Assembly: GCA_043826745.1 (NCBI GenBank)
Contig: JBDRPV010000052.1
Span: forward strand, 1-32,160
DNA from: Parcubacteria group bacterium
GTDB lineage: Bacteria; Patescibacteriota; JABMPQ01
Length of the DNA: 32,160 nucleotides
Reading direction: 5' to 3'
The notes beneath the pieces were generated by a model, which had not been told where the DNA came from, ran no database searches, and worked only from the letters and a program-made list of their open reading frames with translations. Below are positions 7,095-30,517 of this stretch, in pieces (position 1 is the stretch's first letter; every line of letters starts with the position of its first letter). Both the position numbers and the translations under genes were made by a program.

Positions 7095-7327
7095 GTAGGT
7101 CTGCAAATACACTGTAGGCCGTTGCGAACCTACTGCGTCAAAAAGTTTTTCAGACGCAGTTCCGTAACTCACTCTGACAGAGTGAGCGAATTGACGCCTT
7201 CCAAAACAAAGGGTTTCCTTTAAAAGGAAATAATATCAATACCTCGAGCTTGAGGTACAAAAGATGCCCTGCCACAGCCTAAATTTATGTATGCTCTTTG
7301 TGAGCTGTGGTCAAAATTTTGGAAGGC
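7095..7327 (+). ncRNA. Candidate structured ncRNA of unknown class, in the 287-bp gap between convergent pth and mltG. Strand is tentative.
   Basis: Six local hairpins: 7095-7101/7128-7134, 7132-7139/7153-7160, 7168-7174/7180-7186, 7214-7230, 7240-7245/7252-7257 and 7271-7277/7304-7310. An 11-bp long-range helix (GCCTTCCAAAA 7196-7206 with TTTTGGAAGGC 7317-7327) encloses the last three and is followed by a T-run (7329-7334). TTGACT at 7059-7064 is a possible -35. Confidence 0.4.
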
Positions 7328-7332
7328 CTTTT

Positions 7333-8400
7333 TTATTTATCCAGATACTTCTCCTTATTCTCCAAATGCTGCTCGGCCGTCTCAGCGAAGATAGCTTCAC
7401 CCGTATCCAACTTAGTGATAAAGAATAAATAGTTATGTTCAGCGGGATTAATAGCCGCCTTAATCGCCTGCAGTCCTGGATTGCCGATCGGTGCCGGCGG
7501 CAAGCCAGCGTTAAGATAAGTATTATAAGGTGAATTCACTCGTGTTTCTTCAAAAGTCGGCTGCGGATCCTTGCCTTTGGTAATGTAAGTAATAGTAGCG
7601 TCTGACTGCAATTTCATATCAATATCTAGACGATTCTGGTAGACGCCAGCTACTTTTTTCATTTCGTCCTCCTCTCGCACCTCCCGCTCCACGATAGCCG
7701 CTAAGTTTACTACCTCAAACACTGTCTTGTTTTGATTTTTAATCTCCGCCAATAAACTATCGCCAACTTTCTTCGCAAAATTATCTAACATTTTCTCAAT
7801 AATCTCCTCGGGCGTAGCATCGCTGTACACCTCATAAGTATCTGGGAATAAATAGCCTTCCAAGGTCGCTCCCTGAGGAGCGTCTTCTAGGAATGAATAA
7901 TCCGGACGATATTTATCTAACTGGCTCGATTCACGGACAAACTCTATTTCAAATTGGCTTCGCACTGCCTCTATATCCTCGCTGCCAGTATAGTGATCAA
8001 CGTGATGTTTAACAAAAGCATCAGCAATATCTTCCCGCGTCCACCCCTCCGGGATCACCACTTGCCTATCCTCCATCGCTCCGGCGATAAGCTTGTCCGC
8101 GATCTCCTGAGCCGACATCGCTGGCGACAAAGTATAAACGCCGGCTTTTAACTTATCTTCACTTTTAATTAGCCAGAGATAAGTATCAATGTAAAAATTG
8201 TCTGGCACTAGTCCCTCTTCTACTAAGCGCGCCGAGACTTGGTTCACTCCATCGCCGGGCTTAACAGTGAATTCCTGTTGACTGCTATTGTCCGGCTTGT
8301 AGGGCATAAAAGTCCGGTAACAAAAAAACGCCAAGAGGCCAACGCCACAGAAAAGCAGTAGGAACACAACCGCAATTATTTTTTTAATAGTCTTAAACAT
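7333..8400 (-). CDS. mltG: Endolytic murein transglycosylase MltG (YceG-like)
   Basis: N-terminal TM, then EGYLFPDTYE, AAIVEREV, GVYQNRL, LQSDATITY and SPYNTYLNAGLPPAPIGNPG. Confidence 0.9.
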   Translation of the reverse strand: MFKTIKKIIAVVFLLLFCGVGLLAFFCYRTFMPYKPDNSSQQEFTVKPGDGVNQVSARLVEEGLVPDNFYIDTYLWLIKSEDKLKAGVYTLSPAMSAQEIADKLIAGAMEDRQVVIPEGWTREDIADAFVKHHVDHYTGSEDIEAVRSQFEIEFVRESSQLDKYRPDYSFLEDAPQGATLEGYLFPDTYEVYSDATPEEIIEKMLDNFAKKVGDSLLAEIKNQNKTVFEVVNLAAIVEREVREEDEMKKVAGVYQNRLDIDMKLQSDATITYITKGKDPQPTFEETRVNSPYNTYLNAGLPPAPIGNPGLQAIKAAINPAEHNYLFFITKLDTGEAIFAETAEQHLENKEKYLDK

Positions 8401-8403
8401 CTT

Positions 8404-9486
8404 TTACAGGTATTTTTCTTTTTTGTCTTTCTTTAGTTTCTCGACTAACTTCTTTACATCCTGCGACCGCCCTTGCGGACAAATTAGAAGTGCATCTTCA
8501 GTGTCCACCACTACCATATCATCTATACCAATCGTCGCTATTACTTTATCTTCCCGACCATAAATCAGGCACTTGGTGGTATCATCCCCTACCCACTCGC
8601 CTCGAATAACATTATCGTCTTCATCTGCCTCCGCCGTCAGCTGATCGTGGAGCACGTCCCAAGTGCCAATATCGCTCCAGCCAAAATCGCCTTTGATAAT
8701 TAAAACATCATTCTTGTTCATCTTTTCCAGGATAGCATAATCAATTGAAATCTTTTGCATTTTACAATATTCGCTATCAACCAGATAATCGTCATCTCTT
8801 TCAAGGGCGGTGATGATTTTTTCCAGGTGCTGATAGATGTGGGGAGCATAACGCTGATAAGCGTCTAAAAAAGCGCGTGGCGTCCACATAAAAAAATTAG
8901 CGTGCCAGAGATAATTACCAGCCTGAATATATTCTTTGGCCTTAGCAAAGCTGGGCTTTTCAACGTGGCCGAGAAATTTATATATTTCTACCCCATTCTT
9001 TTTTTCATGTAGATCGCCAATTTGCGTATAGCCCAAAGCAGCGCTGGGGAAATTAGGTACCACTGCAATATCCATCATCTTACCTTCCTTTTTAATCACC
9101 TGCTCCGCTTTTTGCAGCAGCTTAATAAACTTTTTAACGTCGAAAATATAATGATCAGAGGGAATAAAGGCCATTGGTTCTTCCGGATCCTGAAGAGACA
9201 AGTGAGCTGCCACATAGCCCATGGCTGCTGCTGTGTCCCGTTTTTCTGGTTCAACAATAATGTTGTCCGCCGACACTTGAGGCAAGAGCTTGTTAATAGT
9301 ATTTTTGAAAGCTTGCGTAGTAGAAATAAAAATCTTATTGGCGGGATAATCATTAACAAAACGTTCATACGTGCATTCCAGCATCGAACGTTTTCCAATA
9401 ATTGAAGTAAACTGTTTGGGTTTTGTCTGTCGCGACAAGGGCCAGAAACGCGTGCCCGAACCGCCAGCCAAAATGACGATGTTCAT
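8404..9486 (-). CDS. Mannose-1-phosphate guanylyltransferase-like nucleotidyltransferase
   Basis: ILAGGSGTRFWPLSRQTKPKQF N-terminus typical of ManC/CpsB-type NTP transferases. 360 aa with no isomerase domain. Confidence 0.8.
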   Translation of the reverse strand: MNIVILAGGSGTRFWPLSRQTKPKQFTSIIGKRSMLECTYERFVNDYPANKIFISTTQAFKNTINKLLPQVSADNIIVEPEKRDTAAAMGYVAAHLSLQDPEEPMAFIPSDHYIFDVKKFIKLLQKAEQVIKKEGKMMDIAVVPNFPSAALGYTQIGDLHEKKNGVEIYKFLGHVEKPSFAKAKEYIQAGNYLWHANFFMWTPRAFLDAYQRYAPHIYQHLEKIITALERDDDYLVDSEYCKMQKISIDYAILEKMNKNDVLIIKGDFGWSDIGTWDVLHDQLTAEADEDDNVIRGEWVGDDTTKCLIYGREDKVIATIGIDDMVVVDTEDALLICPQGRSQDVKKLVEKLKKDKKEKYL

Positions 9487-9601
9487 GTTTTAGTAATTAG
9501 TAACCAACCGTGACTTCCAAGGTAGAGTTGATTATATCATAAAACCCTTTAGTGGCGATGTTGATAGGGTGTGTATTAATAATTATGAGTTTGGTTGCTT
9601 G

Positions 9602-11482
9602 CTATTTCAATAACTCCCGGCAACTTTTACATACTCCTGCAATATTCAAGCCAATTTCATCTTTCAGCAGTTCATTTTTACCATGTTCGATAAATTTGTC
9701 TGGCAAGCCTAGCCGTTTAACCTTCACATTAGACAGATTATTTTCTTCAAGCAGCTCAAGCACCGCTGAGCCCAGTCCACCAGCTAGAACATTTTCTTCG
9801 ACCGTAACTATTTTGCCACATCGAGCGGCCGACAAAATCATCTCTTTGTCTAGCGGCTTGATAAATCTAGTGTTAATAACAGCCGCCTCAATTCCCTCGC
9901 TAGCTAATTTCTCCGCCGCCTGCTCCGCCACAGCTACCATCGAACCTAGAGCAATAATATTTATATCTTTACCCTCCCGCAATGTCTCTCCTCCGCCGAT
10001 TGGCAATGGTTTTATTTCTCTAGCCAATTCTACCCCCAGCCCTTCGCCTTTAGGATAGCGAATAGCTAGCGGGCCCTCTTTATACTGTTCGGCTGTCTTT
10101 AACATTCGCTGGAGCTCATTTTCATCCTTAGGTGCCATTACTACCATGTTGGGGATATGACGTAAGTAGGAAATATCAAAAGCACCGTGATGAGTCGCCC
10201 CATCATCCCCTACCAAGCCCGCCCGATCGAGAACAAATATCACTGGTAATTTTTGCAAGGCGACATCGTGAATTATTTGATCGTAGGCTCGTTGTAAAAA
10301 GGTGGAATAAATCGCTACCACTGGCCGGCAACCTTGGGTCGCCAAACCAGCCGCAAAAGTAACGGCGTGTTCTTCGGCAATTCCGACGTCGAAGAAGCGG
10401 CGGGGGTATTTTTCTTTAAACTTATCCAAACCCGTCCCCTCCGGCATAGCCGCCGTAATCGCGACTATGTCTTTATTACTGTCAGCTAATTTTAATAGCG
10501 TGCTAGAAAAAACTTGAGTATAAGTTTGATTGGGTTGAGTTTTTTTAGTTTTACTCTGCCCATTTTTCACATCAAACGGTGCCGCCCCGTGAAATTTACT
10601 GGCATTTTTTTCTGCATGTTTATACCCTTTGCCCTTTTGGGTAATAACGTGCAACAAGATTGGCCCTTTGACATTTTTAATATTACGGAAAGTTTGCGTT
10701 AATTCCGCCGGATCATGGCCATCCAGAGGACCAAAATAGCGAAAGCCAAGCTCTTCAAACCAAGCTCCGGGAGCGATAATTGACTTTACTCCCCCTTCAA
10801 CAAGTTCCCCGGTACGCAAAGCCAGTCGTCCTAAGCGATTAGGTAACTTGCGGACTAAGTCACGGGCTTTATCTCTGGTCTTAATCACCCGCGGATCGGA
10901 AATTATTTTATTTAGATACGAAGCGACCGCGCCGACGTTCTCCGAAATCGACATCTTATTATCATTGAGAACCACAATCAAATCAGATTGAGCCGTGCCG
11001 ATTTGGTTGAGGCCTTCCAGAGCCAAGCCGCCGGTCAGTGACCCATCGCCGATCACCGCGACGATTTTTTCTTTTTTCTGCTTGAGATCGCGCGCCTTAG
11101 CCATACCCAGAGCGGCCGATAAAGAAGTCGAGGCGTGACCAACCCCAAAAGCGTCATATTTACTCTCTGTTCGCCGCGGGAAACCGGAAATGCCATCCTG
11201 CTGGCGTAAAGTAGCAAATTTATCCTTGCGTCCAGTGATAATTTTATGAGTATAGCACTGGTGGCCAACGTCCCAGACCAGCTTATCTTGCGGGAAATTA
11301 AAGCTTTTATACAAAGCTAAGGTGAGCTCAACTACGCCTAAATTAGAAGCTAAATGCCCGCCCGTGTCAGCTACCGTGCTAATAATCAACTGGCGGATTT
11401 CCTGAGCTAGTCTTTCTAGCTCTTTGACCGACAGCTTTTTAATGTCAGCTGGACTCTCTATTTTATTGAGAAGTTTTGTCAT
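9602..11482 (-). CDS. dxs: 1-deoxy-D-xylulose-5-phosphate synthase
   Basis: About 626 aa with GGHLASNLGVVELT, the GDGSLTGG ThDP motif and the typical Dxs N-terminus LLNKIESPADIKKLS. I took the start at the ATG at 11482; the track start at 11491 is TTG. Confidence 0.95.
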   Translation of the reverse strand: MTKLLNKIESPADIKKLSVKELERLAQEIRQLIISTVADTGGHLASNLGVVELTLALYKSFNFPQDKLVWDVGHQCYTHKIITGRKDKFATLRQQDGISGFPRRTESKYDAFGVGHASTSLSAALGMAKARDLKQKKEKIVAVIGDGSLTGGLALEGLNQIGTAQSDLIVVLNDNKMSISENVGAVASYLNKIISDPRVIKTRDKARDLVRKLPNRLGRLALRTGELVEGGVKSIIAPGAWFEELGFRYFGPLDGHDPAELTQTFRNIKNVKGPILLHVITQKGKGYKHAEKNASKFHGAAPFDVKNGQSKTKKTQPNQTYTQVFSSTLLKLADSNKDIVAITAAMPEGTGLDKFKEKYPRRFFDVGIAEEHAVTFAAGLATQGCRPVVAIYSTFLQRAYDQIIHDVALQKLPVIFVLDRAGLVGDDGATHHGAFDISYLRHIPNMVVMAPKDENELQRMLKTAEQYKEGPLAIRYPKGEGLGVELAREIKPLPIGGGETLREGKDINIIALGSMVAVAEQAAEKLASEGIEAAVINTRFIKPLDKEMILSAARCGKIVTVEENVLAGGLGSAVLELLEENNLSNVKVKRLGLPDKFIEHGKNELLKDEIGLNIAGVCKSCRELLK

Positions 11483-11504
11483 TTTTATCAATAAAATCTT
11501 TTAT

Positions 11505-11652
11505 GGTTGCTCTAGTGTGCCGAGAAAAACCTTGATCGACCGAGCGGCCCGCCCGCTTAGCGATGCCTGCCCGCTTGCAGCGAGCTGGCGGGCGAAGCAG
11601 AGCGGGCGGGCGTGAAAATCCACCGTGTTTTCGAAGCATAGCTAGAGCAGCC
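11505..11652. repeat. GC-rich long-hairpin element, copy A (between uppS stop and dxs start)
   Basis: Outer arms GGTTGCTCTAG (11505-) and CTAGAGCAGCC (-11652) are complementary. The core at 11541-11610 is 70/70 identical to the reverse complement of 14533-14602. The inner stem is GCCCGCCCGCT/AGCGGGCGGGC. Confidence 0.85.
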
Positions 11653-11657
11653 TGCCC

Positions 11658-12353
11658 CTATTTCCCAAATCTTCTTTGTCGCTCACTATAATCATTTAGA
11701 GCTTTATCTAGCTCCTCCTCATCAAAATCTGGCCAAAGGGCGTCGGTAAAATATAGCTCACTGTAGCTGACTTGCCAAAGGAGAAAATTACTAAGACGAC
11801 GCTCGCCGCCAGTTCGGATTAGTAAATCTGGGTCGGGTCGGCCAGCGGTGTAGAGATTTTTTTCAATCATTTCCGGAGTTATCTCACCGCTCGCACCTGA
11901 ACTAATAATTTGCTCAACAGCGCGGGCTATTTCTTCCCGGGCACCATAATTGAGAGCAACGTTGAGATGTATTTTGTTATTATCTTTTAACAGCTCAACA
12001 GCGTCATTAACTTCTTTTTGTAGGTCTTCCGGTAAATAGCTGAGATCTCCGAGAATTTGCAGTGAACAGCCTAGTTTCTGTAATTTTTTACGCTTCTTTC
12101 TAATAAAATAGCCGAGAAGTTTCATTAGACCTTTGATTTCTTCCGGACTGCGATTTCGATTCTCCGAAGAAAAAGCGTAGACGGTAATAATTTTGACACC
12201 ACGGTGGCCACATTGATCGATGACCTTTTCTAACCGCAAAGAACCCTCCCGATGACCTTCGATCGTCGGCACTCCTTTGGCTTTTGCCCACCGTCGATTG
12301 CCGTCCATGATAAAGGCGACGTGGTGAGGGATGTTATTTTTATTTTCAGACAT
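11658..12353 (-). CDS. uppS: Undecaprenyl-diphosphate synthase (cis-prenyltransferase)
   Basis: HVAFIMDGNRRWA and ERRLSNFLLWQVSYSELYF motifs. ATG at 12353. Confidence 0.95.
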   Translation of the reverse strand: MSENKNNIPHHVAFIMDGNRRWAKAKGVPTIEGHREGSLRLEKVIDQCGHRGVKIITVYAFSSENRNRSPEEIKGLMKLLGYFIRKKRKKLQKLGCSLQILGDLSYLPEDLQKEVNDAVELLKDNNKIHLNVALNYGAREEIARAVEQIISSGASGEITPEMIEKNLYTAGRPDPDLLIRTGGERRLSNFLLWQVSYSELYFTDALWPDFDEEELDKALNDYSERQRRFGK

Positions 12354-12443
12354 AATCAAACAATAGTTATTAGTTGTAAGCTTTCAGTAATCAGTTTTCA
12401 GTTGCGATTTTAAGATCACCCTTAAATTATAACTGATAACTGA

Positions 12444-13505
12444 TTACTGACCACTTTTCTTAATTTCTTTCATCAACTCTCCCACAATCTCACTCTCATC
12501 GACTGTCCGCACCACCTCGCCCTTCCGAAAAATCACCCCTTGCCCTCTACCCCCTGCCACCCCAATATCCGCTTCCCGCGCTTCTCCGGGACCATTTACG
12601 ACACAGCCCATGACGGCTATTTTTAGTGGCTTGTCTATCTCAGCCGTCCGCCGCTCTACTTCTTCCGCCAGACCAATAAGATCGATTTCCGTTCGCCCAC
12701 AAGTAGGACAAGAGATAATTTCCACTCCGCGCTCCCGCAAGCCGAGGGATTTGAGAATTTCCCAGCCTACCCGCACTTCCTCAACTGGATCAGCCGTGAG
12801 CGACACCCGGATCGTATCACCGATCCCCCGTGAGAGCAAGCTGCCAATCCCGACAGCTGATTTGATCGTTCCCGACCGAGTTGTGCCCGCTTCGGTGATT
12901 CCAACGTGGAGCGGATAATCGACTTTGTCTGACAGTAACTCATAAGCCTCAATCGTGCGTGGGACGTTGCTAGCTTTAAGTGATACTACAATGTCGTGAA
13001 AATCTAAGTTTTCTAATATTTTAATATGCCGCTGGGCTGATTCGACCATTCCGGCTGCTGTAGCTTGACCTTTATGTTTTGCGAGAATATCTTTCTCCAG
13101 CGAACCAGCATTGACTCCAATACGAATCGGGATATTTTTCTCTTTAGCCTTATCGACGACTGCTTTTACTTTTTCGTTCGAGCCAATATTGCCTGGATTA
13201 ATTCGTAGCTTGTCCACTCCCTGATCAGCACATTCAAGAGCCAGCTTATAATCAAAATGAATATCAGCTACTAGCGGGATATCTATTTGCCGCTTGATTT
13301 CTCCAATGGCTTTGGCTGCTATCATATCGGGCACAGCCACCCGGATCAACTCACAGCCAGCTTCTTCTAGCTGCTTGATCTGAGCAACGGTCGCTTTCAC
13401 GTCCCGGGTATCAGTATTGCACATAGACTGGATAGCCACCGGAGAGCCACTGCCGATTGCTAGGCCGCCGATTTTGATTTTATTGGTTGTTTTTCTAGTA
13501 CTCAT
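12444..13505 (-). CDS. ispG: 4-hydroxy-3-methylbut-2-enyl-diphosphate synthase (GcpE)
   Basis: 353 aa with QSMCNTDT, the [11 protein letters not shown]-barrel part, and the C-terminal Fe-S ligand segments ISCPTCGR and GCVVNGPGE. Confidence 0.95.
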
Positions 13506-13566
13506 AAGTTTTAAATATACGCCAATCGTAGCCCAAGGCTTAAATTAAAACAATATCTCGTGACAA

Positions 13567-14415
13567 CTAGATAGATTTTACTAAAAACACTTGTTTATAT
13601 TGCTGCTTTAATATATTGAAGGCTTTTTCTGTTTCTGATTGACCCTCCCACACCCCAAACACCGACGGTCCACTGCCACTCATTAGACTTCCCAGCGCTC
13701 CTAACGCCAACATTTTCTCCTTTATCTCACCAATCACTGGATGTTTAGGAATTATCGACTTTTCAAAATCATTGTGTAAATTGTCTATCACGTCAGTCAA
13801 ATTACCATCAGTCAAAGTCGCAATCATTCGCTTGGTTTTTTCACTCTCCTGCCCGACCTGCGCTAGATCCAGACTGCCATAAGCTTCCTTGGTCGAAATA
13901 GCAATTTCCGGAGTGACTATTATTATTTGTAGGCTTAAATTATTTTTCAGCGACCGCACCTTTTCTCCCCGTCGCATTCCCAGCGCTGTCCCGCCACTTA
14001 CTAGAAATGGTACGTCCATACCTAGCTCCGCTGCATATTCTCGCAATATTTCATCTGACAATCTTAGCTCCCACATTTCATTCAGAGCTTTGAGCGTCGC
14101 CGCCCCGTCAGTGCTTCCTCCGGCCAAGCCAGCAGCTACCGGGATTTTTTTGTCGATATAGATATCTAGTCCCTTATTGACACCATGTTTCTGGCGAATC
14201 AGCTCGACCGCCTGATAAACAATATTTTTCTCATCGAGGGGAATTTGCTCAGAATTAGAAGTAATCTTAATCTCACCAGATTTATTTTCCTTAAAATCCA
14301 GCTCATCATACAAATCAACTGCCTGGTAAACGGTCGTCAGTTCGTGATAATCATTGGGCAATTTACCTAAGATATCAAGAGTTAGATTAATTTTGGCGGG
14401 GGCTTTGATTATCAT
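13567..14415 (-). CDS. ispE: 4-diphosphocytidyl-2-C-methyl-D-erythritol kinase
   Basis: APAKINLTLDI N-terminus and the GHMP-kinase loop PVAAGLAGGSTDGAA. I moved the start to the ATG at 14415 (MIIKAPAKINL), because the 55-codon upstream extension in the track reads through repeat copy B. Confidence 0.9.
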   Translation of the reverse strand: MIIKAPAKINLTLDILGKLPNDYHELTTVYQAVDLYDELDFKENKSGEIKITSNSEQIPLDEKNIVYQAVELIRQKHGVNKGLDIYIDKKIPVAAGLAGGSTDGAATLKALNEMWELRLSDEILREYAAELGMDVPFLVSGGTALGMRRGEKVRSLKNNLSLQIIIVTPEIAISTKEAYGSLDLAQVGQESEKTKRMIATLTDGNLTDVIDNLHNDFEKSIIPKHPVIGEIKEKMLALGALGSLMSGSGPSVFGVWEGQSETEKAFNILKQQYKQVFLVKSI

Positions 14416-14428
14416 AAATTTACTCTGT

Positions 14429-14638
14429 GGCCATCTTGGCATTTCTCCGAAAACACGTTGGATTTCCCCGGCGTGGAAATCCAACTCCGTGATCGGCCTC
14501 GCTCCCTCCCGATCAGATCGGGAGAACCGTGCCCCGCCCGCTCTGCTTCGCCCGCCAGCTCGCTGCAAGCGGGCAGGCATCGCTAAGCGGGCGGGCCGCT
14601 CGACCGATCAAGGGTTTTCTCTGGCATACCAAGATGGC
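14429..14638. repeat. GC-rich long-hairpin element, copy B (between ispDF stop and ispE start). Composite of the 70-bp core plus the small hairpin module.
   Basis: Outer arms GGCCATCTTGG (14429-) and CCAAGATGGC (-14638) are complementary. The 70-bp core at 14533-14602 is inverted relative to copy A. The small hairpin module at 14497-14535 matches 30436-30474. Confidence 0.85.
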
Positions 14639-14643
14639 TAGTA

Positions 14644-15816
14644 CTATTTAAAAAGTGAAACAACCGCAAAAACCTGAATCCCCTTTCCTTGACCAAAAGT
14701 AGTCAAACTTTCGCCACTGGTAACTGTAATGCCAACATCGCTTGCACTAACTCCCAGCAGATTAGCAATAACCTTTTTCATAGCCGGAAAGTGCTTTTCC
14801 AACTTTGGCTCTTTGCCTTCGATAGCAATCGAAACATTGCCAACTTTGCAACCTGCTCTTTGAACAAAACTCCTAACCACTCTCACATACTCCTGACTAT
14901 CTTTTATTCCCTGCTTCAAACACATTTTATCAGAATAAGTAGCCAGCGAGCCTTTACCAACTGCGCTGCCCAAAGCATTACAGAGAGCGTGCAAAACAAC
15001 GTCTCCATCTGAATTAGCGGAAAATCCGCGGGGATGATTTACCTTTACTCCACCTAAAATCAAAGGTTTCTTACCCGCAAAGCGATGCGAATCCTGCCCC
15101 AAGCCTATTTTCATACCCGTCACTCGCCTTTTCCCTAACACCGCCCGGGCAAAATCTAAATCGCTCGGATAAGTAATTTTAATATTTTCGGCCGAGCAAA
15201 GCACTACTTTTACCCGCTTGCCCAGCCTCTCCACTAAAGACACATCGTCGGTGCCATAAAAACTGTCTTTATAGGCTTTATCAAAAGCCTCGAGAGCTAA
15301 ACCAAATTTAATCGTTTGTGGTGTCTGCATCGCCCATAATTCACGGCGATCCAAGGTTTCCTGGACCAGACCACTAGTACTCACCCGCTTAATTGTATCG
15401 CGCGCTGGTTGGGCACAGACAGCAGCGCCATATTTACCCGCCTCGCGAATCGAATCAGTGATATCTTTCTGACCCACCAGCAAATTACCGCCATTATGAA
15501 TCAATACTAGATCGGACTTACCCGTCCCCGCCTCCCGCAAATAATTCAGTCCCTGGTAAACCGAGTCTTGCCGCTCCTGACCACCTACTACAATCGCCTC
15601 TACCTTGCCAAATTTATATTTATCAACGATCTTCTCCATGGCTACAATATCATTCTGAGCCGTTATGATGATAATTCTCGCGATACTCCGGTGCTGCTCG
15701 AAAGCTTTGAGTGTATGATAAATTACTGGATATTTATCCAGCTTGAGTAGCACCTTATTTTTCCCCTGTCGCATGCGCCGACCTTTGCCAGCTGCGACGA
15801 TGAGAGCGATGTTCAT
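14644..15816 (-). CDS. ispDF: Bifunctional IspD/IspF (MEP cytidylyltransferase / MEcPP synthase)
   Basis: N-terminal IVAAGKGRRM (IspD). C-terminal GLGQDSHRF and SDGDVVLHAL (IspF metal and substrate motifs). 390 aa. Confidence 0.95.
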   Translation of the reverse strand: MNIALIVAAGKGRRMRQGKNKVLLKLDKYPVIYHTLKAFEQHRSIARIIIITAQNDIVAMEKIVDKYKFGKVEAIVVGGQERQDSVYQGLNYLREAGTGKSDLVLIHNGGNLLVGQKDITDSIREAGKYGAAVCAQPARDTIKRVSTSGLVQETLDRRELWAMQTPQTIKFGLALEAFDKAYKDSFYGTDDVSLVERLGKRVKVVLCSAENIKITYPSDLDFARAVLGKRRVTGMKIGLGQDSHRFAGKKPLILGGVKVNHPRGFSANSDGDVVLHALCNALGSAVGKGSLATYSDKMCLKQGIKDSQEYVRVVRSFVQRAGCKVGNVSIAIEGKEPKLEKHFPAMKKVIANLLGVSASDVGITVTSGESLTTFGQGKGIQVFAVVSLFK

Positions 15817-15850
15817 AATGCATTATTAGACTGCTGAGGGATTAATATTA

Positions 15851-15934
15851 GCTTTTTTTCTGGCTTCGAGAACTCGTCGCCCTCCCGGCAAGACCGGGAG
15901 AACTCCTCAGACATCTCTCCGCTGCGAAAAAAGT
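15851..15934. repeat. Hairpin element, copy E (between dxr stop and ispDF start). Diverged relative of copy F.
   Basis: TTTTCTGGCTTCGAGAACTCGTC parallels TTTTCTGGCTGCGGAACTCGTC of copy F. Central hairpin is CTCCCGG-caaga-CCGGGAG (15882-15900). Flanks CTTTTTT/AAAAAAG are partly complementary. Boundaries are approximate. Confidence 0.6.
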
Positions 15935-15953
15935 AACATCCAACCCCTAATTA

Positions 15954-17090
15954 CTAACTAGCACTTAGGACGGTCTCCCCTGCCCACTCGCTGGCCTGCA
16001 TAATTTCCGCAAAATCCGGCTCAGCCACCACCTCGTGCTTATCCATCGCCTCTTTTATTAATCGGGGAATATCCAAATAGCCAATTTTGCCATCCAAAAA
16101 TAGCATGACTGCTGCTTCATTGGCCGCATTTACCACCGCTGGCATGGTTCCTCCTGCCTTGAGAGCCACAAAAGCATAGGCTAAACAGGGAAAAGCCTCT
16201 AAATCCGGCTTCTCAAAATCCAAACGCGCTACCTCGGTTAAGCTAAAATCCTCGGCTGGTGATCTCTTGTGTGCTGGGTAGGTCAAGGCATACTGGATTG
16301 CAATCCGCATATCGTGAGGGCCAAGCTGAGCCTTGATGCTACCATCAGCAAATTCGACGGCTGAATGCACAATACTCTGCGGATGCACCACCACTTCAAT
16401 TTGCTCCGGGGTGACGTCAAATAGCTGATAAGCTTCGATCACTTCTAGCCCCTTGTTCATTAAAGTAGACGAATCGATGGTGATCTTGCCCCCCATACTC
16501 CAGGTGGGATGATCAAGGGCTTGCTCGAGAGTAATATCAACCAGCTCAGCTAGCTTCTTCCCGCGAAATGGTCCACCCGAGCAAGTGATAATAATCTTTT
16601 TGATCTCCTTCTCTTTCTCCCCGCGCAGACACTGCCAAATAGCGGAATGTTCCGAGTCAACTGGATAAATATTTACTTTCTTCTCGCGGGCTAGCTTCAT
16701 AATAATATTTCCAGCGGCTACCAATGATTCCTTATTAGCCAAAGCAACGTCAATGCCGGCCTTGACCGCTATCATCGTTGGTACAATGCCTGCCACTCCC
16801 GAGAGAGCATTCAAAATCAAATCGGCGCCGGCCTCCTTAACCAGTTCTTCGCTGCTGAACAATATTTGTGTTCGGCCTAAATCGGCAGCGACTAATTCAG
16901 CCCGTTTGCCTTCATCTCCTACCACTACATATTCCGGCTCATATTTCTTAATCTGCTCACGCAATAAATCAACCTTAGTATTAGTCGTCAAAGCCACCAC
17001 GTCAAATTCCCCTGGCAGATTATCAACTACTTCCAGGGCTTGAGTGCCAATTGAGCCAGTTGAGCCAAGAACGGCAATTTTTTTCTTCAT
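15954..17090 (-). CDS. dxr: 1-deoxy-D-xylulose-5-phosphate reductoisomerase
   Basis: The LGSTGSIGTQAL NADPH-binding N-terminus, LANKESLV and DSEHSAIWQC are present. ATG at 17090 (MKKKIAVLG). Confidence 0.95.
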   Translation of the reverse strand: MKKKIAVLGSTGSIGTQALEVVDNLPGEFDVVALTTNTKVDLLREQIKKYEPEYVVVGDEGKRAELVAADLGRTQILFSSEELVKEAGADLILNALSGVAGIVPTMIAVKAGIDVALANKESLVAAGNIIMKLAREKKVNIYPVDSEHSAIWQCLRGEKEKEIKKIIITCSGGPFRGKKLAELVDITLEQALDHPTWSMGGKITIDSSTLMNKGLEVIEAYQLFDVTPEQIEVVVHPQSIVHSAVEFADGSIKAQLGPHDMRIAIQYALTYPAHKRSPAEDFSLTEVARLDFEKPDLEAFPCLAYAFVALKAGGTMPAVVNAANEAAVMLFLDGKIGYLDIPRLIKEAMDKHEVVAEPDFAEIMQASEWAGETVLSAS

Positions 17091-17106
17091 AAATATCACG
17101 TTGTTG

Positions 17107-17204
17107 GAGGGTAGACATTATTCTTTTTCTGGCTGCGGAACTCGTCCCGATAAGATCGGGACTCAAACACCCGCAGCGGGCGAAAAAGAACAATGTCTAC
17201 CCTC
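17107..17204. repeat. Hairpin element, copy F (between ispH stop and dxr start)
   Basis: The 23-nt outer arms at 17107-17129 and 17182-17204 are complementary, with a single A/C position that would be a U-G pair in the minus-strand (operon) transcript. Inner stem is CTGCGG/CCGCAG. Central hairpin is GTCCCGAT-aag-ATCGGGAC (17144-17162). Confidence 0.8.
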
Positions 17205-17210
17205 ATGTTG

Positions 17211-18050
17211 TTATAATTTACTCAATCTTTCCGCCACTTCCTCCACTAACTCCCGCGGCGTCGAAGCACCGGCCGTTATCCCCACGCTGGCCATTCCCTT
17301 AAACCAATCGTCCTCTAATTCAGCGGCCGTGTCAATCCAATAAGTTTTGTTATTTAATCCCTGGCAAATATGATAGAGTCGAGTCGTATTGCCGCTAGTT
17401 TTCGAGCCTACTACTAGCATAACCTCATTATTCTGGGCTAACTCCTTCGCTTCCTGCTGGTGGCCGCGGGTGGATTCACAAATGGTGTTAAATACTTTGA
17501 CGTCGGCGAATCGCCGCTTTAAAGCCGCCACAATTTCTGTAAAATACTCCTCATCCTGCGTAGTTTGCGACACTACCCCGATTTTAGCTTCTGCGGACAA
17601 ATCCAGCCGGGCTACTTCCTCAACTGAGGCCACTACTGCCGCCTGCCAGTCCACTGCTCCATTAATGCCTTTCACTTCAATATGATCCTGATCGCCAATG
17701 ATCACTATCTCCCGGCCTTCTGATTGCAACTTTTTGGCTAAATTGTGCACAACTGTTACCTTCGGGCAAGTGGTATCAATAATATTTAGGCCTTTCGCCG
17801 TCGCTTCTTGTAGTATTTTGGGATAAATACCGTGGGCAGTGATAATCACTGTCCCTTTCTCGGCCTCAGCTAAAGACTTAATTACCTTAATCCCCTGCTC
17901 TTTCAGCTTCTCCACTACCGTTTCATTGTGCACCAAATTACCCAACATATAGAGTGGTTGGGGGATGTCAGGACTAATCTCGGCACAAGTTTTAACGGCC
18001 CGATCAACGCCAAAGCAAAAGCCAGCGTGACGGGAAATATTTACTTTCAT
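17211..18050 (-). CDS. ispH: 4-hydroxy-3-methylbut-2-enyl diphosphate reductase (LytB)
   Basis: 279 aa. The three spaced Cys contexts typical of IspH are present (GFCFGV, TTCPKV, NTICEST), as is the LVHNETVV segment. Confidence 0.95.
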   Translation of the reverse strand: MKVNISRHAGFCFGVDRAVKTCAEISPDIPQPLYMLGNLVHNETVVEKLKEQGIKVIKSLAEAEKGTVIITAHGIYPKILQEATAKGLNIIDTTCPKVTVVHNLAKKLQSEGREIVIIGDQDHIEVKGINGAVDWQAAVVASVEEVARLDLSAEAKIGVVSQTTQDEEYFTEIVAALKRRFADVKVFNTICESTRGHQQEAKELAQNNEVMLVVGSKTSGNTTRLYHICQGLNNKTYWIDTAAELEDDWFKGMASVGITAGASTPRELVEEVAERLSKL

Positions 18051-18064
18051 GGCTAGATTATATT

Positions 18065-18126
18065 TACCCTGAGCCTGCCGCGCCCGCTGCGCTCTCGCGC
18101 AAGCGAGGCGGGCGGGTCTAAGGGTA
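18065..18126. repeat. Short GC-rich hairpin element, copy G (14 nt upstream of the ispH start)
   Basis: Arms TACCCTGAG (18065-18073) and CTAAGGGTA (18118-18126) enclose CCTGCCGCGCCCGCTGCGCTC..GCGAGGCGGGCGGG. This shares the CCCGCCCGC/GCGGGCGGG theme of copies A and B. Confidence 0.6.
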
Positions 18127-18175
18127 GTTCGACGGGCTCACCATTAACAAAATCACCCTAGCACAAATTTGCCAT

Positions 18176-18224
18176 AAAAAAAAGCGGGTGACAGGTGATG
18201 CACGAAGCATGTACCTGTACCCGC
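18176..18224 (-). terminator. Strong intrinsic terminator after the GC-rich ORF
   Basis: The minus strand reads GCGGGTACAGGTACATGCttcgtGCATCACCTGTCACCCGC followed by 8 T. The stem is about 16 bp and imperfect. Confidence 0.8.
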
Positions 18225-18248
18225 TAAGATAAGATTTGAGCAGATGTT

Positions 18249-19793
18249 TTAGAGGATCCTTTCGGATCCGTTGGAGGGATGAGTGCGGGTTTCGAACTCC
18301 CGCGCCTTGCCCTGCCGATATCGGGCGCAGCCGTAAAGCTCGAAGCAGCGCCAACCGCAGCTCGGCTTGCAATACGGCGAGCTCTGCCGATGGCATGTCT
18401 GAGACTTGTCGAACGGCTGACCCAGCAAAGTCAGAACCGTGATCACATATACGTCCTGCGCCGTAAGGCTGCAAGGCGGCATGTCCGGGTTGGTGTTCCA
18501 AGCGTTGCCGCAGGCCGTTTTGAACGGCGCCAGGAAGATGGCGCTCAGTACTTTGCCATTGAGGTCAAAGTACACGTTCCCGACCTGTTCCAGCGGATCG
18601 ATCAGCTCTGCGCGCCCATCCGGGTCACTCAGCCTGATCTCCGCCGCTCTAAGCGCCGCCGCCACCCGGTTGAGAACCATCTTCGAACGGTCCCGCTCCG
18701 TGTGTACCTGGCTTCCCTCCTTGGTTCTGGCCGTCCAGCTCCCCACGGAGACGTTGAAGTGGGTGTCGGATCGGCGGTGCTGGATGATGACCGTCTCGAC
18801 CACCGTCAGCTTGCGCTGAGCAGCGTACTCGTTGGCCTTCATCCGCGCGACCGAGCCAAAGCGATACGACTCGGACTGGCCCGCGACCACAACACACTTG
18901 GACTCCACCCACCTCACCCCATTGGCGAAAACCACCTGGGGAATGTCCAGCACGCGGAACTGGGCCGTTTCAAAGTCCCGCAGCGCCAGCTTCCACTCCA
19001 CCTCCATCCGATCCAACGCCAGCCGGCACTCATCTTGGAACTCCTTGCGCTGCTGCTTGCGAACCTTGGTTAGCTTGAGACCAGCCACCATCGGGTCCAT
19101 GAGGAAGTAGTTTTCGTTAGCGATGTCGGGACTGGCCGTATTGGTCCGCTTGGCCTTGTCCTGGGTCAGAGCGAAAACGCCCTTGAAGGCGTAAACGCAC
19201 TGCACGACAACCTTGAGGGGGTTGTTCCGATACAGCAAGTTCCAGCCAGTGATCAGGTTCCGGAGGGTGCGGGCCGTGTTGGGCCAGGAGGAGTTCCGAT
19301 AGTCCGGATCGCGAGCGATCGCGGTGCCCTGCTTATCCTGGGCGGCGATCACCTGGGCGATGCCGAGGAACCACTCGTACCCCTTCTTCAAGCCGACCAG
19401 CTCCGTCAGAATCTCGATGGTGCAGAGACTGTCCTGGCGCCCGTGGTGGTCGAGAAACCCGCCACCACAGTCAACGAAGAGGTAGCCGATCTGCTCGAGC
19501 TCCTGGGCCAAGCGACCCTGCTCAATCAGTCTCACCACGTCAAGCTTGGCCTCCTTGACCCTCTTCTCGTCCTGCCAATCCTCAATGCGCAAAGAACCTG
19601 AAGAGATCACCTTGAGGCGGTACTTTTTCTCGAGAGCGATCCGGCAAACAAAGCCGAGGGCGATGATCACCAGTGAAACCAAACACTCAATGTCCGGCCA
19701 GAAGTGGATGACTGCTGTGTGAAACTCTCCTTTTTCGGTTTGGGGTTTGACTACCTGAAACTTCTTGCTTTTCTTGTTCTTGTCCTTGGCCAC
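18249..19793 (-). CDS. Hypothetical 514-aa protein of foreign, high-GC composition. Weak DHH/MYG1-like phosphoesterase motifs in the N-terminal half.
   Basis: The uninterrupted 1.5-kb ORF has strong GC3 bias. GTG start is preceded by GGAGG. HFWPDIECLVS and FVDCGGGFLDHHG resemble the H-x-x-x-D-E and VDxGG...DHH motifs of the DHH/UPF0160 (MYG1) superfamily. The rest is unrecognised. The last ~50 aa are Cys/Arg-rich. Confidence 0.7.
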   Translation of the reverse strand: MAKDKNKKSKKFQVVKPQTEKGEFHTAVIHFWPDIECLVSLVIIALGFVCRIALEKKYRLKVISSGSLRIEDWQDEKRVKEAKLDVVRLIEQGRLAQELEQIGYLFVDCGGGFLDHHGRQDSLCTIEILTELVGLKKGYEWFLGIAQVIAAQDKQGTAIARDPDYRNSSWPNTARTLRNLITGWNLLYRNNPLKVVVQCVYAFKGVFALTQDKAKRTNTASPDIANENYFLMDPMVAGLKLTKVRKQQRKEFQDECRLALDRMEVEWKLALRDFETAQFRVLDIPQVVFANGVRWVESKCVVVAGQSESYRFGSVARMKANEYAAQRKLTVVETVIIQHRRSDTHFNVSVGSWTARTKEGSQVHTERDRSKMVLNRVAAALRAAEIRLSDPDGRAELIDPLEQVGNVYFDLNGKVLSAIFLAPFKTACGNAWNTNPDMPPCSLTAQDVYVITVLTLLGQPFDKSQTCHRQSSPYCKPSCGWRCFELYGCARYRQGKAREFETRTHPSNGSERIL

Positions 19794-25143: not shown

Positions 25144-25223
25144 AGTACAAAAAACAACCAAGTCACAAACACCAACCCTCCCCCTATCACCTAAAACCTA
25201 TAACCTAACAATCTATCCTCCCC

Positions 25224-26820: not shown

Positions 26821-26932
26821 GCTGCCGCCTTAGTGTATTTTGAAAACCGTATTTCGATCGAGTGGGCATGGATCCCCCGACCTGCCTGCCGGGGAAAACT
26901 GACGTGTTTTCAAGATGCATTATGGCAGCAGC
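26821..26932. repeat. Long-hairpin element, copy C (related to copies A and B)
   Basis: About 27-bp outer helix, GCTGCCGCCTTAGTGTATTTTGAAAAC with GTTTTCAAGATGCATTATGGCAGCAGC. It contains 3 G-T wobble positions and 2 mismatches as read on the plus strand. The inner GAAAAC/GTTTTC and CGTGTTTTC segments are shared with A and B. Confidence 0.7.
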
Positions 26933-26955
26933 CTCTGTACCACTGAGAATAAAAA

Positions 26956-27096
26956 ATCTCCACTCATCAAGAACCTTATCTTGGGCACATGTCCCGCACC
27001 GCCCAGCCGAAGCGAGGCAGAATCAAGCTAGTCATATTATACTAGACATAATCTAGTATGGACATTGCTCAACTAAGGTCCTTTATGAGTAGAGAT
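26956..27096. repeat. Long-hairpin element, copy H
   Basis: 20-nt arms ATCTCCACTCATCAAGAACC (26956-26975) and GGTCCTTTATGAGTAGAGAT (27077-27096) pair at 17 of 20 positions. They enclose a GC-rich segment CATGTCCCGCACCGCCCAGCCGAAGCGAGGC and an inner palindrome ATACTAGAcataaTCTAGTAT. Confidence 0.55.
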
Positions 27097-30367: not shown

Positions 30368-30517
30368 GTGGTCATTCAGTCTATCACGAAGACACGACTG
30401 TTTTTCCCAGCGAGAAAAACAGTCTCGGGTTTTGACCTCGCTCTCTCCCGATCAGAATCGGGAGAACCATGCCCGCTCGGCCAAAACACGGTCTTCTTAG
30501 ACAGACCGAATGACCAC
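30368..30517. repeat. Long-hairpin element, copy D, starting on the nucleotide after the stop codon of the 1030-aa gene
   Basis: Outer arms GTGGTCATTC (30368-30377) and GAATGACCAC (30508-30517) are complementary, and the arms extend further with two A/C positions. The internal module at 30436-30474 matches 14497-14535 with 2 substitutions and 1 indel. Confidence 0.8.

Follow-up and report, generated by a model that had tools for sequence, protein, structure and literature searches.

Correia elements (NEMIS), the MITEs of Neisseria, duplicate a TA target and carry conserved termini, an IHF site and promoters; to our knowledge, they are confined to one genus. Much as the repeats described here appear to be, they are non-coding, measure 100-160 bp, end in long inverted repeats and occur as many intergenic copies that are co-transcribed with flanking genes, and their transcripts fold into hairpins for which cleavage by RNase III has been proposed (PMC2229807). 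Unlike Correia elements, the repeats that we term type 1 have lineage-specific termini around an invariant internal core, occur in several phyla, and showed no target duplication in the 40 copies compared. For the ERIC (IRU) sequences of enterobacteria, which are restricted to gamma-proteobacteria and have no sequence relationship to the repeats studied here, we know of no report of a three-way-junction core or of stop-codon proximity. Shared by both are an imperfectly palindromic structure (about 127 bp in ERIC), occurrence in either orientation within intergenic DNA that is transcribed, the existence of larger variants expanded by internal insertions, a means of spread that is not established, and a degree of conservation across genera that is unusually high (PMC2229807). 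ERIC also alters the stability of flanking mRNA in an orientation-dependent manner (PMC2229807).

The REP, BIME and REPIN sequences resemble our repeats as GC-rich extragenic palindromes placed after genes and within operons. REP elements are 3' exonuclease barriers, and those near stop codons can affect the translation of the upstream gene. PMC3733652 describes REP units as 20-40 nt long, with a GTAG or CGTC head, and moved by RAYT transposases. Identity with REP/BIME was rejected, since the elements considered here measure 98-209 nt and have no such head at their ends; they also have no known partner enzyme. The GC clusters of yeast mitochondria are GC-rich palindromic mini-elements in AT-rich spacers that insert into one another; the likeness to our repeats would be one of resemblance only, as host and size differ and GC clusters are without a conserved multi-stem core.

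Hairpin spacers of the MEP operon

The window, by which we mean the whole stretch of 32,160 nt that was analysed, carries on its minus strand a seven-gene MEP/undecaprenyl operon (9602..18050), whose genes were all assigned by Pfam and NCBIfam: ispH (17211-18050), dxr (15954-17090), ispDF (14644-15816), ispE (13567-14415), ispG (12444-13505), uppS (11658-12353) and dxs (9602-11482). The contig that carries it is Parcubacteria-like. Seven repeat copies were found in this 32-kb window, which fall into three palindromic, non-coding repeat families: type 1 (copies A, B, C and D), type 2 (E and F) and type 3, a GC palindrome (G, and also nested in A and B). Those lying between operon genes are presumably transcribed together with them. 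As had been predicted, spacers are almost filled by GC-rich hairpins near stops and starts, and this holds at four of the six junctions (A, B, E and F), which are 82-92% occupied by very stable hairpins (z -3.9 to -12.4, folded on the mRNA-sense strand and scored against shuffled sequences) that start 5-6 nt past the stop and end 14-22 nt ahead of the next ATG; at the ispE-ispG (61 nt) and ispG-uppS (90 nt) junctions no GC-rich hairpin was found. For A, B, D, E, F and G, zero shuffles matched the fold of the real hairpin.

Copy A (11505..11652, minus strand), in the uppS-dxs spacer, is a degenerate type-1 element recognised by folding, by its orthologue in a relative and by a repeat match with B. 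It lies 5 nt past the uppS stop and 22 nt ahead of the dxs ATG (-72 kcal/mol, z -4.7), is without P2-P4 of the type-1 core described below, and holds a nested type-3 palindrome at 11547-11611. Copy B (14430..14638, plus strand), in the ispDF-ispE spacer, was identified by folding and by a match to the type-1 model R1 (14439-14565, 57 bits), whose strand is here antisense to the operon; it lies 5 nt past the ispDF stop and 14 nt ahead of the ispE ATG (-128 kcal/mol, z -8.5), with a nested type-3 palindrome at 14533-14595. A and B have 89 nt in common at 97% identity, in opposite orientation. Copy E (15837..15948, minus strand; nhmmer E=3e-30 and folding) fills the dxr-ispDF spacer from 5 nt past the dxr stop to 20 nt ahead of the ispDF ATG (z -3.9), and copy F (17107..17204, minus strand; inverted-repeat comparison, nhmmer and folding) the ispH-dxr spacer from 6 nt past the ispH stop to 16 nt ahead of the dxr ATG (-63 kcal/mol, z -12.4), with a perfect outer stem of 23 bp. 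Upstream of the ispH start, the type-3-like GC-rich palindrome G (18065..18126, minus strand; fold z -4.6) ends 14-15 nt ahead of the ATG and is flanked by a possible 5-nt AGGGT repeat, seen for G only and with element boundaries uncertain by a few nucleotides.

Outside the operon, copy D (30368..30517, plus strand; R1 97 bits, folding z -7.0) is the best preserved type-1 copy of the window and begins on the base after the stop (30367) of a 1030-aa gene, with a separate terminator-like hairpin following it. Copy C (26834..26973, minus strand) is heavily degraded, being supported by R1 (17 bits, E=0.006), folding and a short inverted match to B. These coordinates agree with the spacings in the original prediction for A, F and D and, at 14-15 nt, with the 14 nt given for G; for B, the distance from the stop stood, and that to the ispE ATG is 14 nt instead of 13. 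The predicted lack of a Shine-Dalgarno sequence before the starts that follow hairpins was also borne out, but it is not specific to these spacers: such a sequence is absent from 21 of the 23 genes of the window, which makes its absence a trait of the genome.

Repeat families and their states in related genomes

In every element, the two ends are long inverted arms (P1) whose pairing produces a rod. With lengths of 62-209 nt, the elements are below the limit of about 300 bp for MITEs; nearly all of their sequence is self-paired, and they have no coding capacity of their own, the apparent ORFs across them being upstream extensions of real genes. In type 1, an invariant core is enclosed by lineage-specific terminal arms (17-38 pairs in most copies) and forms a conserved three-way junction, with a P2 hairpin bearing the loop CCCAGCGUG, followed by P3, the internal loop CUCGCUC / ACCRUGCCCGCUC and P4, which is variable. 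In an alignment of 59 copies, 94% of cells were paired and 246 were changed on both sides; this covariation was reached in none of 500 shuffles, and slid controls were at most 57% paired. R1 recovers B, C and D in the window and more copies in relatives, and second type-1 copies are nested within P4 in L054, L061 and L040. The arms of type 2 are common to different copies, and this family also occurs at a separate locus (L137), there with a nested type 3.

An 18-mer scan returned at least 120 loci, of which about 70 are true type-1 copies, from at least 40 species genomes. The hosts include Omnitrophota and Patescibacteria as well as MAGs labelled Bipolaricaulota, Ratteibacteria and Aminicenantes, all under the taxon names given by the MAG depositors; among the matches listed, single Omnitrophota genomes have 5-6 loci each from one exact 18-mer alone. 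The Rfam 15 covariance models gave no match to the elements, either at the gathering score or at E up to 5-10, for the window and for intact copies from other phyla. No common flanking direct repeat was found in 40 copies, the boundaries of which are good to a few nucleotides, and no termini conserved across phyla were found in type-1 copies. Neither a parent insertion sequence nor a transposase was seen in the flanks (8 kb per locus), no family recurred among 150 neighbouring proteins, and the genes next to type-1 copies are unrelated housekeeping genes. Integron attC sites were considered and rejected, given ends without RYYYAAC / GTTRRRY core sites and neighbours that are housekeeping genes and a conserved biosynthetic operon. 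A structured core that is invariant across 40 or more species from several candidate phyla, with no Rfam entry and no transposase seen in the 8 kb per locus, points to a trans-acting partner and to gene flow between lineages.

At the same junctions in relatives, the repeat may be present or absent, single-armed, truncated, nested or inverted in its core, and gene conversion was seen. In L009, ispH, dxr and ispD overlap and leave no spacer where the window has F and E; L002 keeps one arm only at the B junction, and L006 one arm only of F between ispH and dxr. Copy G lies inside an insertion of about 100 nt that is missing from L006 and L002 at the same place. The orthologue of A in L003 (15151-15310) is an intact type-1 element of which copy A is a deleted form, and the nested palindrome of A is the same as that in B. 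In B, the core runs opposite to that of the orthologues in L006 and L009; the core is likewise inverted in the orthologues of E in L006 and L134, while in L002 the E orthologue has the same core orientation with the arms swapped; both orientations between inverted repeats were observed between species only. Relatives without hairpins at these junctions still retain the MEP operon. These comparisons show elements that are repeated and dispersed, that nest in one another and that are polymorphic between relatives; cores turn round within their arms, gene conversion transfers sequence among copies, and the type-1 family is present in several phyla.

Origin and possible roles of the repeats

We consider it probable that the hairpins are mostly decaying copies of three small non-coding palindromic MITE-like repeat families, with a geometry determined by the tolerance of translation; nothing about them indicates an operon-specific signal. 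As in MITEs, the sequences are short and non-coding, with terminal inverted repeats, many dispersed intergenic copies and insertion polymorphism between relatives; against this, termini that vary around an internal core that does not are the opposite of what MITEs usually show. The repeats would have invaded nearly every junction of a once compact operon, spreading as selfish DNA via a single-stranded intermediate of fixed polarity, read by a trans-acting factor with the invariant core as its recognition target. Behind the regular geometry there would be a survivorship filter, possibly with a target preference, in which a copy survives only if it lies after a stop codon and if the RNA before the next start stays AU-rich and unstructured for about 13 nt or more, a stretch that may be the ribosome landing site in a genome without Shine-Dalgarno sequences. 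The co-transcribed stems of 20-40 bp are probably exonuclease barriers or RNase III substrates, as a side effect and not the cause of their presence; by analogy with REP, Correia and ERIC sequences, an incidental effect on mRNA stability or processing is plausible.

The placement of type 1 relative to stops and starts was surveyed across genomes in a rough census of 51-53 copies, with crude ORF calls and element boundaries accurate to a few nucleotides. No copy was clearly inside a gene. Of 36 tandem contexts, 27 had the copy nearer to the stop than to the next start (p=0.004), and on 21 of 48 sides facing a stop the distance was 10 nt or less. The claim that the arrangement does not look like random insertion was therefore right about placement, which is non-random, but insertion itself is supported by the empty, truncated, nested and inverted states in relatives. 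Orientation relative to genes was random (21:15), and copies also occurred in convergent and divergent intergenic regions. Type-1 copies stay close to stop codons even in long intergenic regions, so that survivorship alone is insufficient and a selected function at gene 3' ends could be reflected.

This last observation also supports a reading that we regard as unlikely, in which selection maintains the hairpins as cis-acting RNA elements that set relative cistron expression, whether as 3' stabilisers, as sites of RNase processing or as hairpins protecting 5' ends. In its favour, the stems, which are not terminators, have very high stability, the mRNA strand gives the better fold in copies B, E and F by 7-20 kcal/mol, and Correia and ERIC elements offer a precedent (PMC2229807). 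Nonetheless, a strand-specific form of the RNA role originally proposed is not supported, given A and B, one element in both orientations within the operon, the 21:15 orientation of the family and the mRNA strand folding better in only 5 of 15 operon copies, with the antisense strand better in 10. The inverted cores between orthologues, the operons kept without hairpins, the convergent and divergent locations, and the substitutions or deletions of the window's own copies at core positions invariant elsewhere all argue in the same direction. With similar reserve, type 1 might be an undescribed mobile element whose core is a one-strand catalytic or recognition fold (of a self-cleaving RNA, or of a recombination site in single-stranded DNA), moving without target duplication, preferring sites a few nucleotides after stops, and spread horizontally among ultra-small and uncultured bacteria.

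It is improbable that the type-1 core is a functional structured RNA, such as an undescribed self-cleaving ribozyme or small RNA, with the copies as its genes or carriers. Across phyla, the nucleotides of its loop and junction do not vary and covariation extends to all stems; it has no match in Rfam, and its strands are intrinsically asymmetric, with the better fold on the complement of the model strand in 45 of 51 copies. However, when a DNA repeat is palindromic, covariation can also be kept at the DNA level, and G-U pairs are rare (10 of 1105 cells). Moreover, orientation is random with respect to host transcription, many copies sit in 20-nt spacers with no space for a promoter of their own, and those of the window decay freely. 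Invertible switches (invertons), whose core flip would toggle something in the operon, e.g., a weak orientation-dependent terminator, are a very improbable reading. At two junctions, close relatives differ in the orientation of the core with respect to the arms, and in the B orientation the P2 hairpin is followed by GUGUUUUCGG and was flagged as terminator-like; this U-run, however, has just 3-4 residues and is missing from Omnitrophota copies, no recurrent invertase or recombinase gene was found among the 150 neighbouring proteins (8 kb per locus), inversion was observed between species and not within a population, and recombination or template switching between long inverted arms accounts for the flips without function. 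Finally, hardly any credence can be given to intrinsic terminators or attenuators dividing transcription units, despite the location directly after stop codons, given that, as predicted, no complete hairpin is followed by a U-tract (the only flag of the terminator scan among them was for an internal sub-hairpin of B), prediction gave no promoter-like site in the four GC-rich hairpin spacers, including the stretch between hairpin and next start, and the next cistron lies within 14-22 nt of each hairpin.

Implications and neighbouring features of the operon

Taken as MITE-like repeats, the regular spacers of the MEP operon would be a record of repeated selfish-DNA invasion and not a designed control system, and for that reason transcript data should precede any regulatory model based on them. 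The repeats also give false N-terminal extensions in annotation, as in ispE (ORF of 337 aa; true protein about 282 aa), and break or chimerise contigs in assemblies of uncultured bacteria, e.g., at the end of JAHJQX010000033.1. Furthermore, stems placed 10 nt or less from stops, in the absence of Shine-Dalgarno sequences, provide a test case for the way in which ribosomes deal with 20-40-bp stems at termination and initiation, and for whether such stems influence mRNA decay in these bacteria.

Two further structures differ from the GC-rich hairpins. After orf514, a terminator-like hairpin followed by eight T's (18175..18225, minus strand; sequence and fold) is conserved in L006; it was not among the sites listed by the consensus terminator scan, and we read it from its sequence as a putative intrinsic terminator marking the upstream boundary of the MEP transcription unit. 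In the ispG-uppS spacer, inverted-repeat comparison and folding revealed an AT-rich palindrome (12384..12450) that may be a fourth kind of inserted repeat; at this site in L002 and L009, ispG and uppS overlap by 8 nt.

Hairpins of the MEP operon

The complete MEP/undecaprenyl gene array spans 9602-18050 (8.4 kb) on the minus strand, in the order ispH-dxr-ispDF-ispE-ispG-uppS-dxs, with strong Pfam and NCBIfam matches for all seven genes; the closest IspDF relatives, 75-87% identical, bear Patescibacteria or Parcubacteria labels. Every spacer was folded on both strands, and GC-rich hairpins were located at the uppS-dxs (A, 11505-11652), ispDF-ispE (B, 14430-14638), dxr-ispDF (E, 15837-15948) and ispH-dxr (F, 17107-17204) junctions, on the upstream side of ispH (G, 18065-18126) and, outside the operon, at 30368-30517 (D) and approximately 26834-26973 (C, degraded). 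These hairpins start 5-6 nt past the upstream stop codon (0 nt for D), end 14-22 nt ahead of the next ATG and take up 82-92% of the spacers. The refolded spacers confirmed the hairpins and the stop/start geometry of the original prediction, apart from one-nucleotide differences. No dinucleotide shuffle equalled any hairpin in stability (z −3.9 to −12.4), and in a sliding-window fold of the whole contig the same sites stood out, together with the GC-rich orf514.

The hairpins had been described as not being simple terminators, and indeed neither the folded spacers nor a terminator scan revealed a U-tract after a complete hairpin; the sole item flagged by the scan was an internal sub-hairpin of B. 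Moreover, no promoter was predicted inside the elements. The lack of a Shine-Dalgarno sequence, also claimed beforehand, is true of the spacers but not specific to them, being a feature of 21 of the 23 genes in the window. Immediately upstream of ispH, a -10-like hexamer lies 6-7 nt ahead of the start codon (TATAAT in the window, 18051-18064; TAAAGT in the related locus L006, ~1975-2007), suggesting that this first cistron may be leaderless or near-leaderless, which would fit the genome-wide lack of Shine-Dalgarno sequences. In the 90-nt ispG-uppS spacer there is also an AT-rich palindrome (12384-12450) with 27-nt arms that are 85% complementary; at the related loci L002 and L009, ispG and uppS overlap by 8 nt.

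Repeat families and their distribution

The hairpins fall into three repeat families and are not signals peculiar to this operon. A and B have 89 nt in common at 97% identity, in opposite orientation, while B and D share a 70-nt module. In this division, made by reading the sequences, type 1 comprises B, C and D, together with a deleted version within A. Its long outer arms (P1) are accompanied by a P2 hairpin with the loop CCCAGCGTG and a P3 stem, followed by an internal loop (CTCGCTC / ACCRTGCCCGCTC) and a variable P4 hairpin. Type 2 (E and F) is a simple rod with arms near GGGTCAATATTATTCTTTTTC, and type 3 is a GC palindrome (CCCGCCCGC...GCGGGCGGG) that stands alone in G and is nested within A and B. 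A metagenome scan for type 2 returned seven loci, three of them real (one being the known L002 contig) and four chance matches in coding DNA. Type 2 also occurs at an unrelated locus of the L002-type organism (L137), where it is flanked by a 67-aa gene and a transporter gene and, once more, has a type 3 nested inside it.

Type 1 is far more widespread. A scan for the 18-mer TTTYCCCAGCGTGAAAAT, with one genome per species, yielded at least 120 loci, against about 35 chance matches expected, and the full architecture was recognized in about 70 of the matches listed. True copies occur in at least 40 species genomes which, according to depositor labels, belong to Omnitrophota (including one single-cell genome), Parcubacteria, Paceibacterota, Portnoybacteria, Saccharibacteria, Peregrinibacteria and other Patescibacteria, as well as Planctomycetia, Bipolaricaulota, Ratteibacteria, Aminicenantes and Makaraimicrobium. 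Single genomes of Omnitrophota carried at least 5-6 loci among the matches listed. True copies score 40-106 bits with R1, the covariance model of the type-1 repeat. In an alignment of 59 copies, standard pairs filled 94% of pair cells, and changes on both sides were found in 18 of 19 pairs (246 cells); none of 500 shuffles reached this, and slid partners were paired in at most 57%. Loop and junction nucleotides are invariant and P1 arms lineage-specific, whereas P4 takes large insertions, such as a second inverted copy in three loci (L054, L061 and L040) and a conserved 170-nt rod extension in Omnitrophota. Furthermore, a short GC palindrome, GCCTGCCGGCAGGC, is nested in type-1 copies whose hosts carry different phylum labels; it is exact in L006 (2883-3027), has 1-4 differences in L015 (3167-3298) and L094 (~7123-7265) and is degenerate in copy C of the window (~26880-26900). 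From these sequences, it appears to be either a micro-element in its own right or a palindrome-growth hotspot at the GCCCGC motif.

No match to the elements was found in Rfam 15, either in the window at the gathering score or in the operon region at E up to 5, nor for intact copies from other phyla at the gathering score or at E up to 10. Literature searches by taxon, RNA motif and motif strings retrieved no description of the element, and viral contigs lacked it, their two matches being bare 18-mers. To judge by Rfam and the searchable literature, the type-1 family is undescribed.

In a census of 51-53 well-delimited type-1 copies, based on crude ORF calls and fold-derived boundaries, all copies were intergenic. 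Six of them lie in a stop-free frame that prolongs the next gene at its upstream end, the artefact that also accounts for the 337-aa ispE ORF of the window. Gene contexts were tandem in 36 cases, convergent in five and divergent in six, and the orientation of the R1 model strand relative to flanking genes was 21:15 (p=0.4), or 15:7 among those no more than 15 nt from a stop codon (p=0.13). In tandem contexts, the stop side was shorter than the start side in 27/36 copies (p=0.004); distances of at most 10 nt were found on 21 of 48 stop-adjacent sides versus 6 of 52 start-adjacent sides, and several copies adjoin a stop codon despite hundreds of nucleotides before the next gene. Neither random distances from ORFs nor frequent intragenic copies were observed, so the non-random geometry originally proposed stands; it is, however, a family trait in many genomes and not special to the MEP operon. 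Among the census copies we saw no common target-site duplication or flanking motif, and in a survey of 150 neighbouring proteins no mobile-element family recurred, the commonest being radical SAM proteins (5/150) and the others ordinary housekeeping products.

The same junctions in related operons

Syntenic operons at L002/L003 (87% IspDF identity), L006 (83%) and L009 (81%) were compared with the window. At the exact sites of F and E, ispH, dxr and ispD of L009 overlap with no spacer. At the B junction, intact type-1 copies are present in L006 and L009, and in L002 there is a 37-nt spacer in which one arm only is kept. Compared with the cores of L006 and L009, that of B matches in reverse complement (score 66 vs 21-25), and by eye the 3' arm of B is nearer the L006 3' arm than the reverse complement of the L006 5' arm, local arm alignments being ambiguous; a flip of the core between the arms is thus probable. 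Type 2 follows a like pattern at the dxr-ispDF junction: the window and L002 agree in core orientation but have their arms swapped, and the cores of L006 and L134 are opposite to both. The type-1 copy at the A junction is intact in L003, and in the window A has lost P2-P4. Since the nested type-3 palindrome occupies the same position in A and B and is absent from the orthologues of both, the sequences point to gene conversion between A and B. In addition, G lies inside an insertion of about 100 nt that is missing in L006 and L002, and at the site of F, L006 has one arm only, followed by a type-1 copy.

The L002 single-arm site prompted the idea that arms are inverted duplicates of host flanks, which was dropped because type-2 arms are common to unrelated loci and type-1 arms have a loose within-lineage consensus; on sequence comparison, single-arm sites are better read as deletion remnants. 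Other changes were noted in these operons. In the ispH-dxr spacer of L002, a DUF559 endonuclease-like ORF is fused in frame upstream of dxr (8375-9871), which adds one more selfish insertion to the junctions of this operon. Between ispE and ispG, where the window has a 61-nt spacer only, the array of the relatives is split by one or two extra genes without Pfam match and of unassigned function, partly on the opposite strand (L002, 12149-13246; L006, 6728-9092; L009, 4035-7131). The contig end of JAHJQX010000033.1 (L002, 15260-15490) is chimeric, sequence of a window-like strain being attached to it through the repeat: from the nested GC palindrome on, it matches the B flank and the ispDF 3' end of the window, not its own ispDF. 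L003, a JGI assembly of the same organism, ends within ~20 nt of the chimera repeat.

RNA-level role or selfish repeat

The regular geometry had been taken to indicate an RNA-level device of this operon and not insertion. Neither part is upheld. The second is at odds with the relatives, which display insertion, loss, nesting, inversion and apparent gene conversion at the same junctions. As for the first, one element is present in both orientations within the operon, cores are flipped between orthologues, relatives lack hairpins at the same junctions, and the mRNA strand folds better in only 5/15 operon copies of the window and relatives. Moreover, none of the four type-1 copies of the window is intact at the positions that are invariant elsewhere: the P2 hairpin of B carries three substitutions (one in the loop), and B also contains a nested insertion; in D a single loop position is substituted, half of the element is missing from A, and C can barely be recognised. 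Taken together, these observations argue against a strand-specific role in the operon.

An RNA encoded on the model strand was not favoured by a wobble-pair test: across core and arms, G-U (G-T) pairs were rarer than A-C mismatches (42 vs 70), an asymmetry that points to the opposite strand. In 45/51 copies, the complement of the model strand has the more stable fold (mean difference 8.6 kcal/mol; p=2e-8), although C-rich conserved loops contribute to this asymmetry and confound it. Despite the random orientation to genes, both asymmetries suggest, as only a lead, that the life cycle of the element itself includes a single-stranded stage of fixed polarity.

We read the hairpins as MITE-like selfish repeats that are transcribed along with the operon. 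Judging from Correia and ERIC elements (PMC2229807), they are likely to influence mRNA decay or processing, though such effects would be incidental. Without a Shine-Dalgarno sequence, initiation would require an unstructured AU-rich stretch before the start codon, which could account for surviving copies ending at least ~13 nt upstream of it. The hairpins of the window are ordinary in kind, as palindromic mobile repeats; type 1 is unusual in its cross-phylum conservation, invariant structured core, stop-adjacent preference and apparent absence of target duplications or a visible partner.

The neighbouring orf514 (18249-19793, minus strand) was considered as partner enzyme of the element and rejected, having no Pfam or NCBIfam match and a homologue in one syntenic relative only. 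It encodes 514 aa at 62% GC, the contig being otherwise mostly below 50% GC, and is the only one of the 23 window genes with a canonical GGAGG Shine-Dalgarno sequence. In L006, a 536-aa ORF occupies the corresponding place upstream of ispH; the two products are 37% identical, and beyond this ORF no homologue was detected. The motif VDCGGGFLDHHG of orf514 presumably recalls DHH/MYG1-type phosphoesterases. After four close Parcubacteria relatives, the best matches of IspDF (14644-15816) are ~50% identical and mostly labelled Woesearchaeota/Nanoarchaeota, on contigs of up to 436 kb; a bacterial-type MEP enzyme would then be present in MAGs labelled as DPANN archaea. Finally, the 28-nt sequence TTGTTAGGTTATAGATTATAGGTGATAG forms an inverted repeat with 93% complementarity (2872-2899 and 25184-25211), one copy adjoining hisS and the other lying near a tRNA-Trp gene.
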